A DNA stretch of 64,000 nucleotides from Bacteroidales bacterium (GTDB lineage Bacteria > Bacteroidota > Bacteroidia > Bacteroidales > WCHB1-69): NCBI GenBank assembly GCA_045616665.1, contig JAZLHE010000098.1, positions 8,034 to 72,033 of the forward strand, given 5' to 3'. Below are positions 10,081 through 62,852 of this stretch, in pieces (positions within the stretch are counted from its first letter, which is position 1; the number at the start of each line of letters is the position of its first letter). The notes under the pieces are model-generated. The model saw only the letters and a program-made list of their open reading frames with translations, had not been told where the DNA came from and ran no database searches. The position numbers and the translations under genes were made by a program.

Positions 10081-10220
10081 GTGATCAGTGATCCGTGAAC
10101 AGATTTATTTGCTTGTGCGAGTGTAAAGACGTATCTCTCCACGGCTCTACTGGCGAACTCTTAATTTCTTAATTATTATAATGTCTCCCCATCAGCTCAC
10201 CGATCACTGCTCACTGTTCA
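10081..10220. repeat. Inverted arrays of TGANCNG heptamers flanking a 90-bp core
   Basis: The left arm on plus strand is TGATCAG TGATCCG TGAACAG (10082..10102). The right arm read on the minus strand is TGAACAG TGAGCAG TGATCGG TGAGCTG (10220..10193) and starts directly after the TAG stop of the LOG-family gene. The arms can pair at 16 of 19 positions. Confidence 0.7.
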
Positions 10221-10811
10221 CTACTTTTTAATCTTATCCAACCAATGTCTGTCGTTAGAATTTTCGTAATGATCTAACTTGTAGAACAAATCGTCCAAAT
10301 CTCGAGCCACAATCAGCAAATCGTAATGGAATGGCCTCAGGAAACCGTCTTGACGAAAACGGTCGAGTTGAGCCACCAAGTGATCGTAGTAACCATCCGC
10401 ATTCAACAAGGCCACTGGTTTTTGATGCAAGCCCAACTGGGCATCTGTCATCATCTCGAAGAATTCATCCATAGTGCCATACGAACCGGGAAGTATTACA
10501 AAGCCATCGGCTTTTTCTTCAAGCATTTGTTTTCTTTCACTCATTGAATTGACTAAAATCAGATTTTCTCCCAGCGACATATCCAACACGGTTCCATTGG
10601 AAAAGAAATTTGGTGCAATACCTACCACACGACCTCCGTTGGCACGGGCAGCCTCTGATGCCGCCACCATTAAACCAATGGAAGCTCCGCCGTAATACAA
10701 CGTGAGATTTTTTTCCGCACATCGCTTTCCGAACTCGGCTGCCAACTCAACAAAAAAAGGATTATTTCCCTGCGAAGATCCGCAATACAATGCCAAAGAC
10801 GAATATTTCAT
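10221..10811 (-). CDS. LOG family protein (TIGR00730-type nucleotide 5'-monophosphate nucleosidase)
   Basis: 196 aa with the PGSYGTMDEFFE (PGGxGTxxE) motif and GGASIGLM. The start overlaps the pssA stop by 4 nt. Confidence 0.85.
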   Translation of the reverse strand: MKYSSLALYCGSSQGNNPFFVELAAEFGKRCAEKNLTLYYGGASIGLMVAASEAARANGGRVVGIAPNFFSNGTVLDMSLGENLILVNSMSERKQMLEEKADGFVILPGSYGTMDEFFEMMTDAQLGLHQKPVALLNADGYYDHLVAQLDRFRQDGFLRPFHYDLLIVARDLDDLFYKLDHYENSNDRHWLDKIKK

Positions 10812-54294: not shown

Positions 54295-54302
54295 TATATT
54301 TG
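54295..54302 (+). promoter_or_regulatory. -7 promoter box TATATTTG
   Basis: Exact TAnnTTTG match 24 nt upstream of the small ORF at 54326. Confidence 0.4.
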
Positions 54303-54325: not shown

Positions 54326-54466
54326 ATGAAGAAAATTGTAGTCATTTTAAGTCTTGTTTTGGCTGGTTTATTTGTATTTTCGGCTTGTGACACACAGAAA
54401 AAATGTGCCGCATACGGACATTATTCGGAGAACATCGAATTAAATAGCGAAAGCAATCAAATATAA
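54326..54466 (+). CDS. 46-aa candidate lipoprotein (below the ORF-track length cut-off)
   Basis: Hand translation gives MKKIVVILSLVLAGLFVFSACDTQKKCAAYGHYSENIELNSESNQI. It has a lipobox-like FSAC, its own promoter box, and a stop 7 nt before the next ATG. Confidence 0.45.
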   Translation: MKKIVVILSLVLAGLFVFSACDTQKKCAAYGHYSENIELNSESNQI

Positions 54467-54473
54467 GTCCGCG

Positions 54474-55244
54474 ATGGATGGTAAGTGTGAGGCCTATAAT
54501 CTGTGCAGGAAAGTTCTGTTAACGGGACTGATTTGCCTGTTGGCTTGGCACGTGCAGTCCCAAGACGTTGGCGACTCGATTCAGCAAAGTGTGACGGTAA
54601 AAGAATGGAATTTCAACATTGAGATTAACACTGCCGGGGCGGGCTTATGGTTTCAACACGGTTGGACACCTGACTATTACAACAAGCACTTTATCGAGGC
54701 AAGTTTTGTGTACAACAAGCATCCGAAAGCCGTACGGGTCAAAAACACTTACTATTCAGGAGCGACCTCGTTTTGTTATGGAAAACTCTGCGACTTGTTC
54801 TTTCTTCGTTTGGGATATGGGTACCAACGCACCTTACACCACAAGCCCTATTGGGGCGGTGTCGGCATTCGCTACACCTTGTCGGCAGGCTTGTCGTTGG
54901 GACTGGTTTTTCCAACCTATTTACGCGTTATTGACTATTACGGCGCTGTGCGGACGGAGAAATACGATCCGGAGTTATATGACCAAGTGGACATATTAGG
55001 TCACGCGCCTTTTTGGACCAACTTGTCACATATGAGTTACCCGCATCCGGGGTTTTATGGCAAAACGGGGTTTATTTTCGACTTCAGCAAAAATGAGAAA
55101 GCCATTCACGCGATAGAAATTGGGGTTTGTGTCGATATGATCTTCCCCTTCGTACAGCAAATGGCTTACAACAAGGCAAAACCAGCCTACTTCGCTTTTT
55201 ACATTTCTTACGACGTTGGAAAGAAAAAAGGCGTTTATGAATAA
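54474..55244 (+). CDS. Hypothetical protein (probable outer-membrane or periplasmic, beta-rich)
   Basis: 256 aa with a hydrophobic N-terminus (VLLTGLICLLAWHVQSQ) and Gly/Tyr-rich beta-strand-like composition. No motif recognised. Confidence 0.5.
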   Translation: MDGKCEAYNLCRKVLLTGLICLLAWHVQSQDVGDSIQQSVTVKEWNFNIEINTAGAGLWFQHGWTPDYYNKHFIEASFVYNKHPKAVRVKNTYYSGATSFCYGKLCDLFFLRLGYGYQRTLHHKPYWGGVGIRYTLSAGLSLGLVFPTYLRVIDYYGAVRTEKYDPELYDQVDILGHAPFWTNLSHMSYPHPGFYGKTGFIFDFSKNEKAIHAIEIGVCVDMIFPFVQQMAYNKAKPAYFAFYISYDVGKKKGVYE

Positions 55245-55245
55245 C

Positions 55246-55434
55246 GAGATGAGAGATGAAAGTTGAAAGATGAAAGATGAAAGATGAAAGATGAAAGATG
55301 AAAGATGAGAGATGAAAGATGAGAGATGAAAGATGAAAGTTGAAAGATGAAAGATGAGAGATGAGAGATGAAAGATGAGAGATGAAAGATGAGAGATGAG
55401 AGATGAAAGATGAAAGATGAAAGTTGAAATTTGA
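55246..55434 (+). repeat. 27-unit perfectly phased heptanucleotide tandem repeat (RAGWTGA)
   Basis: Hand count: 14 aagatga, 9 gagatga, 3 aagttga and 1 aatttga, with no indel over 189 bp. It starts 2 nt after the TAA of 54474..55244 and ends 69 nt before the glyA ATG. Confidence 0.95.
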
Positions 55435-55503
55435 ATTTATCATATTATAAAAAGACAAATTAGTTAAACAAACATATCAATAATCAAAAAAAATAAAAAA
55501 AAA

Positions 55504-56784
55504 ATGACAAGAGACACTCAGATTTTTGATCTTATTCAAAAAGAAAGAATCCGTCAGACGAACGGTATCGAATTGATTGCTTCTGAAAACTTTGTCAGCG
55601 AACAAGTTATGGAAGCTATGGGTTCTGTGATGACCAACAAATATGCCGAAGGTTATCCTGGCAAGCGTTATTATGGTGGTTGCCAAGTGGTTGACCAGAG
55701 CGAAACCATCGCCATTGAAAGAGCCAAACAGCTTTATGGTGCCTGCTGGGCCAACGTTCAACCTCACAGTGGTGCCCAAGCCAACATGGCCGTTTTTATG
55801 GCTTGCCTGAAAGCCGGTGACACTTTTATGGGAATGAACCTCAATCACGGTGGCCACTTGAGCCACGGCAGTGCCGTCAACTTCTCCGGAATTATGTTCA
55901 ATGTTGTGGATTACAGCGTTGAAGAAGAAACCGGTATGATTGATTATGACAAAATGGAAGCCCGTGCTTTGGAAACCAAGCCAAAACTCATCATCGGTGG
56001 TGCTTCTGCCTATAGCCGCGACTGGGATTGGGCACGTATGCGTCAAATTGCCGACAAAATCGGTGCCATTCTGATGGGCGACATCAGCCACCCCAGCGGT
56101 TTGATTGCCAAGGGTTATCTGAACGATGCCGTTAAATATTGTCACATCGTGACCACCACCACCCACAAGACCCTTCGTGGACCTCGTGGCGGTATGATCC
56201 TGATGGGTGAAGATTTTGACAATCCTTGGGGCAAGACCACTCCTAAGGGTGAAATCAAAAAAATGAGTGCCTTGCTTGACAGCGCCGTATTCCCAGGCGT
56301 TCAAGGTGGACCACTCGAACACGTTATCGCTGCCAAGGCCGTAGCTTTGGGCGAAGCTTTAACTGATGATTACGACAGATATATCCAACAGGTGATGAAG
56401 AATGCCAAGACGATGTGCTCCGCATTCATTGACAAAGGTTACAAAGTCATCAGCAACGGTACCGACAACCACTTGATGCTCATCGACCTCCGCACCAAAT
56501 TCCCAGAAATGACCGGTAAGGAAGCCGAAAACGCATTGGTATCAGCCGACATCACCGTTAACAAGAATATGGTTCCATTCGACAGCCGCAGTGCATTCAA
56601 AACCAGCGGTTTGCGTATTGGTACACCAGCTATTACCACTCGTGGCCTGAAAGAAGACGAAATGGGCGTTATCGTTGACTTGATTGACGACGTTTTGAGT
56701 CATCTTGGTGACGACAGTGTGGTTGCCAAAGTTAGAAGCAAAGTAAATTCAATGATGTCTAACCGTCCATTGAATGCTTGGTAA
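55504..56784 (+). CDS. glyA: Serine hydroxymethyltransferase
   Basis: 426 aa with [22 protein letters not shown] and the PLP-lysine block [15 protein letters not shown]. Confidence 0.96.
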
Positions 56785-56805
56785 CAAGTAATTTCCACAA
56801 TAAAA

Positions 56806-56835
56806 GGAACACGTTTCGGCGTGTTTCTTTTATTG
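56806..56835 (+). terminator. Rho-independent terminator after glyA
   Basis: Stem ggaacacg / cgtgtttc with one G-U pair and a 6-nt loop, followed by tttattgttttt. Confidence 0.65.
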
Positions 56836-56871
56836 TTTTTATAAAAAGAATAATCATAAAAAATCCGTATT

Positions 56872-62750: not shown

Positions 62751-62852
62751 CACCCCGCGCTTGCCTCTCGCCGCCCGCCGCGCGGGTTATATTAGCCGTA
62801 AGTGTCTTAAAAGCAATTCTAAACCCTAATCCCTACACCCTATACCCTAATT
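62751..62852 (-). repeat. Conserved 3'-flank element, copy 1 (period-7 TAGGGNN units plus GC-rich segment)
   Basis: Starts at the FISUMP stop codon. The minus strand reads TAA aat TAGGGTA TAGGGTG TAGGGAT TAGGGTT TAGAATT ..., then cggctaatataacccgcgcggcgggcgg...gcgcggggtg. About 90 of 102 positions are identical to copy 2 by hand alignment. Confidence 0.85.

Follow-up and report, generated by a model that had tools for sequence, protein, structure and literature searches.

Introduction

The STRR heptamers of heterocystous cyanobacteria, reported by Mazel et al. in 1990, are said to comprise several families of 7-nt units, which lie as dispersed tandem arrays in non-coding DNA. About 90% of the heptamers of Xanthomonas (GGGAATC) and Nostoc PCC 7120 (GGGGA(C/T)T) are intergenic, mostly between co-oriented ORFs, at 28 nt from the end of the upstream ORF and 160 nt from the next ORF (Rehm et al. 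2015, PMC4692102). TAACTGA repeats are found in Beggiatoaceae, in cyanobacteria and in five Bacteroidetes, and reach up to 43 copies in some Bacteroidetes (MacGregor 2015, PMC4679880). As cited in that paper, Mrazek et al. (2007) described a heptamer excess and attributed it, as a proposal, to slippage of the polymerase in steps of about 7 nt. In the 5'-UTRs of the adhesin genes hmw1A and hmw2A of H. influenzae, an (ATCTTTC)n tract of 11 to more than 20 units is phase-variable; in hmw1A the mRNA carries the pyrimidine strand, which base-pairs with a G-rich arm and undergoes RNase III cleavage (PMC12721329). The heptamer copy number of the S23p IVS of Coxiella burnetii varies between strains (PMC4990558).

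Here we describe a heptamer array that lies upstream of glyA in an uncultured rumen Bacteroidales bacterium. The window, by which we mean the whole stretch of DNA that was analysed (64,000 nucleotides), is part of contig C98 of a 2.82-Mb metagenome-assembled genome (MAG; label G000) that consists of 114 contigs and is 99% complete. Coordinates given without a contig are positions in the window. The relatives used for comparison are likewise represented by MAGs of uncultured Bacteroidales, obtained from rumen and horse faeces.

Structure of the array and its immediate setting

The array occupies positions 55246-55434 on the plus strand. By direct count its 189 nt are made up of 27 heptamers in a single 7-nt register with no indels, and TRF reports the repeat at 55247-55429 (period 7, 26.1 copies, 0% indels). 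Fourteen of the units read AAGATGA, nine GAGATGA, three AAGTTGA and one AATTTGA, and the base composition of the plus strand is A 95, G 62, T 32 and C 0. Written as RAGWTGA, the unit varies at position 1 (A/G) and position 4 (A/T), and the final unit, AATTTGA, deviates at position 3 as well. The unit count and single phase given in a preliminary description of this DNA were thus reproduced exactly. Its statement that only positions 1 and 4 vary is right for those two positions, but has to be amended for position 3 of the last unit.

The array starts 1 nt past the TAA of a 256-aa gene and stops 70 nt short of the glyA ATG (55504). It takes up 189 of the 259 bases of the spacer upstream of glyA, which bears out the earlier remark that it fills most of this region. 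The remainder (55435-55503) is an A-rich, non-repeat leader, and no riboswitch or other known RNA was found before glyA by comparison with Rfam families. Each of the 23 ATG triplets in the array opens a mini-frame of five codons (MKDER and similar), the TGA of which overlaps the next ATG.

Stop codons number nine in each frame of the plus strand and zero on the minus strand, so the plus strand is closed and the minus strand open in all frames, as had been described. Because the minus strand is stop-free, a 124-aa ORF can be called across it (55084-55458, minus strand). That this ORF is an artefact had already been proposed, and we agree, since it has no Pfam match and the stretch encoded by the repeat lacks conservation in relatives. 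The candidate of a real minus-strand protein was rejected on the same grounds, the relatives' spacers holding other units. The artefactual ORF begins with TTG, and a short way upstream of this codon the minus strand at 55469-55476 reads TATGTTTG, a match to the Bacteroidetes -7 box that is directed leftwards into the array. Antisense transcription could start from this sequence, but the window contains 69 boxes of this kind and the match may be due to chance.

Transcription context

TAnnTTTG is the -7 consensus of Bacteroides promoters. A sigma-70-type promoter scan is uninformative for Bacteroidetes, and our own scan for TAnnTTTG was used instead. The plus strand from 54071 to the glyA ATG contains this motif a single time, as the canonical box TATATTTG at 54295-54302. 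The box lies 24 nt before a 46-aa ORF (54326-54466, plus strand) that resembles a lipoprotein signal peptide, has no Pfam match and is probably the first gene of the unit. This ORF is followed on the same strand by the 256-aa gene (54474-55244), a hypothetical gene that is conserved in 107 of the 121 family genomes searched. Beyond the array lies glyA (55504-56784, plus strand), which encodes serine hydroxymethyltransferase (SHMT; PF00464, E = 1.2e-164). In a terminator scan, the interval from the upstream gene to glyA yielded no hairpin of terminator type. The first terminator-like site downstream of the 54295 promoter is a hairpin of the intrinsic type, with an 18-bp stem followed by a T run, at 56797-56836 (plus strand), directly after glyA.

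Given the lone box at 54295, no terminator before glyA and a terminator after it, one transcription unit is the simplest reading. TATATTTG is likely to be the promoter of the small ORF, the 256-aa gene and glyA, and co-transcription of the 46-aa ORF, the 256-aa gene, the array and glyA is proposed here from these motifs. No TAnnTTTG was found by the plus-strand motif scan between the array and the ATG, in agreement with the preliminary description. Of the two possibilities raised there, we prefer transcription of glyA by read-through from upstream, with TATATTTG at 54295, no intervening terminator and a strong terminator at 56797-56836. The other possibility, that array length sets the distance of a glyA promoter, is not borne out: no -33/-7 pair straddles the array, and the only canonical box upstream is the one at 54295. 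Note that the sole TTTG of the spacer sits in GAAATTTG (55426-55433, plus strand), a 7-of-8 match to the -7 box that is formed from the last two, degenerate units and that is possibly a weak promoter of glyA's own.

The spacer RNA is predicted to be nearly free of structure (MFE -9.4 kcal/mol over 281 nt, z = +1.56, empty centroid) and is less structured than 193 of 200 shuffles. A second folding comparison, in which mononucleotide shuffles were used, gave z of about 0.

Reliability of the assembly

Short-read metagenome assembly might have created the array, or its unit number and order. The genome is a MAG of 114 contigs, and the 189-nt array exceeds a typical short read. In addition, pure (AAGTTGA)n arrays run to contig ends in two other places, G000:C9:11207-11332 and G000:C43:42468-42583. 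These two stand in opposite orientations and are probably a single array that broke the assembly. The focal array differs in that its interspersed variants hold exact repeats to 38 nt internally and hold the longest stretch common to any other locus to 51 nt, so that an assembly with k of at least 55 could resolve it. Independent MAGs of at least eight congeners assemble heptamer mosaics at the same spacer, and the genes on both flanks are intact. An assembly artefact is therefore most improbable.

Heptamer arrays in the genome and lineage

Period-7 arrays characterise the genome as a whole and, beyond it, the entire lineage in this rumen Bacteroidales family. An autocorrelation detector found 60 of them in the 2.82-Mb genome, 4.2 kb in total; the same detector set to periods of 5, 6, 8, 9, 10 and 11 returned 7, 3, 5, 1, 0 and 2 arrays, respectively. 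This difference (60 versus 0-7) excludes a chance origin. About 20 arrays at about 12 loci are built from the unit family RAGWKGA (AAGATGA, GAGATGA, AAGTTGA, AAGTGGA and GAGTGGA), in which the core GA-R-AG is constant (positions 2, 3, 6 and 7) and the variable sites match those of the focal array. The nine longest arrays of the genome (127-399 nt) all belong to this family, the members of which have unrelated flanks and lie next to unrelated genes. Several of these sister arrays carry higher-order repeats of 14-35 nt, which are a signature of multi-unit slippage or unequal exchange. A mobile element with conserved ends was considered and rejected, the flanks of about 18 RAGWKGA arrays being unrelated. 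The window itself contains shorter heptamer arrays at 10081-10222, 62819-62850 and 63843-63874 (GTGATCA/GCTCACT and CTAAACC), which are other unit families of the same genome-wide class.

Arrays occupy the spacers that follow the 3' ends of genes, usually from the stop codon or just beyond it. Placement was determined against rough gene calls (2,104 genes, 88% coding). Among the 39 arrays placed, 35 are in co-oriented spacers, 2 in convergent and 2 in divergent ones, although divergent spacers make up 24% of intergenic bases (p = 0.004). Arrays in the co-oriented spacers lie at medians of 30 nt from the preceding stop and 166 nt from the start that follows, with 25 of the 35 nearer the stop. 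The deficit in divergent spacers and the proximity to stops mark the arrays as gene-end elements, not promoter elements.

Array densities in relatives, in which period 7 is likewise in excess, were estimated from samples of 14-140 kb per genome. Within the same genus, we counted 27.5 period-7 arrays per 100 kb in G009, 29 in G002, 13 in G004 and 2 in G005; G014, from another genus, has 7.5 per 100 kb and G027, from another family, has 6. None was seen in 140 kb sampled from G026, nor in small samples from G011 (20 kb), G012 and G013. RAGWKGA arrays of at least five perfect units occur in 18 of the 121 family genomes and in 8 of the 22 genera, with the focal genome the richest. Note that the reversed-pattern control for this search is not independent, since the reversal of an AAGTTGA-type unit is a rotation of itself.

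Outside the Type I R-M locus on contig C95, the purine strand is the sense strand in all eight orientable RAGWKGA arrays (p = 0.008), and arrays in co-oriented spacers of relatives are A-rich on the sense strand. A stop-codon fence was rejected as a general rule: AAGTGGA and GAGTGGA are free of stops in every frame. Among the arrays of the genome, 24 are closed by stops on the sense strand versus 17 on the antisense strand, and the relatives show no sense-strand bias.

The orthologous spacer in relatives

Arrays change by whole units between close relatives. Within the genus, and also in two others (g4 and g6), the 256-aa gene directly neighbours glyA; in most other genera, glyA is not adjacent to the 256-aa gene. 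Congener spacers are 51-279 nt long and are mosaics of other heptamers, beginning at the stop codon. Their units include GTGATCA, GGGGTCA, GGGGATA, ATAGTTA and AATTCAY, plus a 14-mer in one spacer (L046). The most informative pair is L019 and L054, from near-identical strains of a sister species, in which the flanks are 99-100% identical and the spacers are 215 and 279 nt long. They differ by +3 GTGATCA, +1 GGGGTCA, -1 GGGGATA, +5 AATTCAY and one 8-nt unit. These whole-unit differences support slippage-type turnover at the spacer upstream of glyA in sister lineages. Conspecific sequence was sought by way of the exact upstream protein and the exact GlyA, both of which are absent from the records, and scans of genome and metagenome contigs reached at most 78% protein identity. 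We infer the variability of the focal array itself from sister species only. In g4 and g6 the spacer is 37-89 nt long and contains no heptamers, and that of g4 bears a canonical TAATTTTG box.

Several further features of these spacers were noted. In L019-L023, L054 and L020, the last ~50 nt before the glyA ATG form an A/C-rich leader with a period of 8 nt, (ACAAWTMA)n. L018, L049, L022 and L020 have the conserved motif ATTAGCACAT in common, in one orientation or the other; of the focal spacer this holds only for AAATTAGTTAAAC. In the spacer L022 (G002:C18), (AAGAATT)n and ATTCTTAACTCTTAATTC form inverted heptamer arms, and the spacer is more strongly folded than shuffles (z = -3.1). It is a gene-less foldback at the site of the focal array.

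PF05635 (S23p) cassettes

The genome contains five genes for PF05635 (the 23S-rRNA-IVS protein, S23p), four of which are bracketed by inverted arrays with arms of period 7 or, in one case, period 8. In six genomes of the family, 13 of the 17 PF05635 copies examined are bracketed in this way by inverted period-7/8 arrays, the left arm starting at the upstream stop (nrdD/nrdG, serC/serA, hsdS and others). The copy on C95 (E = 1.6e-28) has RAGWKGA arms and lies within the Type I R-M locus. Cassettes and foldbacks of the genome fold with z values of -4.6 to -11.6, the spacers upstream of glyA with -3.1 to +3.0 and the focal spacer with about 0 to +1.6.

Two cassettes are described in more detail. 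Between serC and serA, a PF05635 cassette is found in three genera (G000:C103:3818-3979, L106 on G043:C86 and L108 on G121:C41) with arms that differ among them, those of G000 having period 8. It would seem that the site of insertion persists over long times and that turnover affects the arms. At G000:C99:12837-13451, a PF05635 gene has foldback arms, (CCAGTKA)n then (GGAAACT)n, on both sides, and this cassette appears to split an ORF that resembles an R-M methyltransferase.

The focal array matches the arms of the C95 cassette in unit family, in its position abutting a stop and in its purine-sense polarity. Tentatively, and with about even odds, it may be an orphan or decayed arm of a PF05635 cassette that was later expanded. 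Against this origin, 52 of the 60 arrays in the genome, all the long ones and the focal array included, are without an inverted partner. Within 700 nt of the focal array no inverted partner and no hairpin were found; none of the five PF05635 matches falls in its spacer, where only 70 nt follow the array. Nor was a PF05635 cassette present among the spacers upstream of glyA that were recovered from relatives, of which only that of the congener L022 is foldback-like.

In the Type I R-M locus (G000:C95:98906-111138; hsdM, hsdS and hsdR), RAGWKGA arrays lie in almost every spacer. Within hsdS (PF01420, C95:102985-104445), an in-frame 21-nt higher-order heptamer repeat encodes about eight GEMKVEN/S copies in the central conserved region. 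A change of 21 nt would make this region longer or shorter and one of 7 nt would cut the S subunit short, which makes hsdS a better candidate for a contingency locus than glyA.

Discussion

We consider the focal array to be an ordinary heptanucleotide SSR of the gene-end type (long SSR or STRR-like repeat in other terminologies), which changes by whole units and has little or no specific effect on glyA, and assign this reading a probability of about 0.62. Tandem 7-nt units, the period-7 excess, a 3'-end position and variation in sister lineages are the features that place it among heptanucleotide SSRs. The array would have grown in place and been resized by slipped-strand mispairing or unequal recombination, a proposal that fits the 14-35-nt sub-repeats of the sister arrays. 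It would lie inside a unit that extends from the promoter at 54295 through the small ORF, the 256-aa gene, the array and glyA to the terminator at 56797. As RNA it would form an intercistronic stretch free of both C and structure, the length of which should matter little or not at all to glyA. Two observations weigh against this account. One unit family with an invariant GA-R-AG core recurs in 8 genera, which could mean selection for a binding motif, and the near-consensus GAAATTTG at the 3' end of the array could be glyA's own promoter. The neutral reading nevertheless has the highest probability, with RNA-level and protein-binding readings as less likely alternatives.

Among the alternatives that give the repeats a cause or a function, solo RAGWKGA arrays, the focal one among them, might be made or maintained by the PF05635 cassette system (S23p, an Avd-like pentamer) and not by passive slippage. 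The S23p protein, or RNase III processing of transcribed arms, would then set the 7-nt step and seed arrays at stops; if true, this would explain the long-puzzling excess of heptamers in bacteria. We judge it unlikely. In another reading, the GA-R-AG core, recurring every 7 nt, is a multivalent ssDNA/RNA site for an oligomeric protein. Pentameric, Avd-like S23p or a cold-shock-domain protein (footprint of 6-7 nt) could bind there and could set the 7-nt step. The constancy of positions 2, 3, 6 and 7 in about 20 arrays with unrelated flanks, in a family spread over 8 of 22 genera, favours such binding. At each PF05635 copy the arms are built from a particular unit family, of which further arrays cluster in the vicinity (at 100-108 kb on C95 and at 32-38 kb on C108). 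S23p has been reported to be a toroidal homopentamer (PMC4990558), and Csp and S1 have been proposed to bind TAACTGA repeats (PMC4679880). Many unrelated units share the period of 7, however, which points to a cause that is independent of sequence. PF05635 copy number, too, is only loosely related to array density: G011 has 10 copies and an array-free sample of 20 kb, and in both G000 and G005 five copies go with a low density. We regard a protein-binding array as decidedly improbable. A functional RNA spacer is quite unlikely as well. Such a spacer, C-free, structure-free and dense in AUG, would act on the polycistronic mRNA: it could block the loading of Rho between the two genes, or could carry or hold ribosomes by way of the 23 AUGA-linked five-codon frames and so couple or damp translation of glyA. 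Zero C in 189 nt, the 23 ATG with their overlapping TGA, the unstructured RNA, the uniform sense polarity of the eight orientable arrays outside the R-M locus and the A-rich sense strands of relatives' arrays in co-oriented spacers would all suit this role. The sister units AAGTGGA and GAGTGGA contain neither ATG nor stop, however, congeners have unrelated units at the same spacer, and sense-strand stops show no general bias (24 sense versus 17 antisense, and none in relatives). The polarity could equally result from a replication or insertion bias.

The preliminary description had pointed to a contingency locus. In such a reading, slippage alters the length of the array and thereby promoter distance or 5'-UTR length, so that glyA is graded or switched. 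With hmw1A as the model, this reading can draw on the whole-unit changes at the orthologous spacer of sister strains, on the 7-of-8 -7 box at the array end and on the heptamer itself: ATCTTTC of hmw1A, once reverse-complemented and rotated, gives AAGATGA, and hmw1A expression falls with rising unit number (PMC12721329). The hmw mechanism requires, however, that the pyrimidine strand be in the mRNA together with a complementary G-rich arm and a hairpin for RNase III, and a mutant with the tract inverted (GAAAGAT-sense) lost both regulation and variation (PMC12721329). In the focal array the sense strand is the purine one, a complementary arm is absent, and nearly all shuffles of the RNA are more structured than the RNA itself. 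The array lies outside ORFs and is far longer than a promoter, without a -33/-7 pair straddling it, so that gain or loss of units leaves promoter-proximal positions unchanged even if glyA starts at GAAATTTG. The gene downstream, for SHMT (PF00464), is a housekeeping gene and not a surface, antigenic, restriction or niche-adaptive one. Moreover, the array is one of 60 that adjoin unrelated genes, about 20 of them with the same unit family, and these arrays avoid divergent, promoter-only spacers. A contingency function is therefore very doubtful. Expansion and contraction by slippage, also part of the earlier proposal, are supported by the turnover between L019 and L054; their role as a contingency device specific to glyA is not.

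Comparison with known heptamer systems

The arrays described here resemble those of Xanthomonas and Nostoc in their period-7 excess, in their placement (medians of 30 and 166 nt versus 28 and 160 nt) and in having conserved loci at which length and sequence vary between close relatives. They differ in host, an uncultured rumen Bacteroidales bacterium, and in unit, which is A/G-rich without G runs and thus cannot form a G-quadruplex; the focal array is also long, at 27 units. With TAACTGA arrays they share an intergenic position, the presence of other heptamers in the same spacers, and relatives in which orthologous spacers are short and repeat-free. The unit is a different one, however, and the short sets of Beggiatoaceae lie a few nt before starts, whereas the focal array abuts a stop and is 70 nt from the start. 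The STRR heptamers differ in phylum and in unit sequences.

In hmw1A, the DNA heptamer is the same (GAAAGAT is a rotation of AAGATGA) and the tract is of similar size and likewise upstream of a gene. The focal array nonetheless lacks the defining features of the hmw1A mechanism: it is purine-sense and has no partner arm within 700 nt and no RNA fold. It also precedes a housekeeping gene and has dozens of sister arrays. The resemblance to the S23p-ORF IVS of 23S rRNA (Coxiella burnetii, Leptospira) lies in the RAGWKGA arms of a PF05635 cassette and in starts at stop codons; what sets the focal array apart from such cassettes is that it has no PF05635 gene, inverted arm or hairpin.

By these comparisons, the focal array is an unremarkable case within a class of repeats that has been known since 1990-2007, and for this reason should not be annotated as a regulator of glyA or as coding sequence. 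Its interest lies in the lineage, an uncultured family of rumen and hind-gut Bacteroidales in which heptamer arrays at the ends of genes are dense and evolve fast. Whole-unit turnover is seen at one conserved spacer in many of its closely related MAGs, and PF05635 cassettes of these genomes are flanked by the same units. The lineage can thus be used to ask why a step of 7 nt is favoured, the question posed for the TAACTGA repeats (PMC4679880) and for the heptamers of Xanthomonas and Nostoc (PMC4692102). It could also serve to test roles for the cassette protein or for RNase III, the latter having recently been shown to act on the identical heptamer of hmw1A (PMC12721329).
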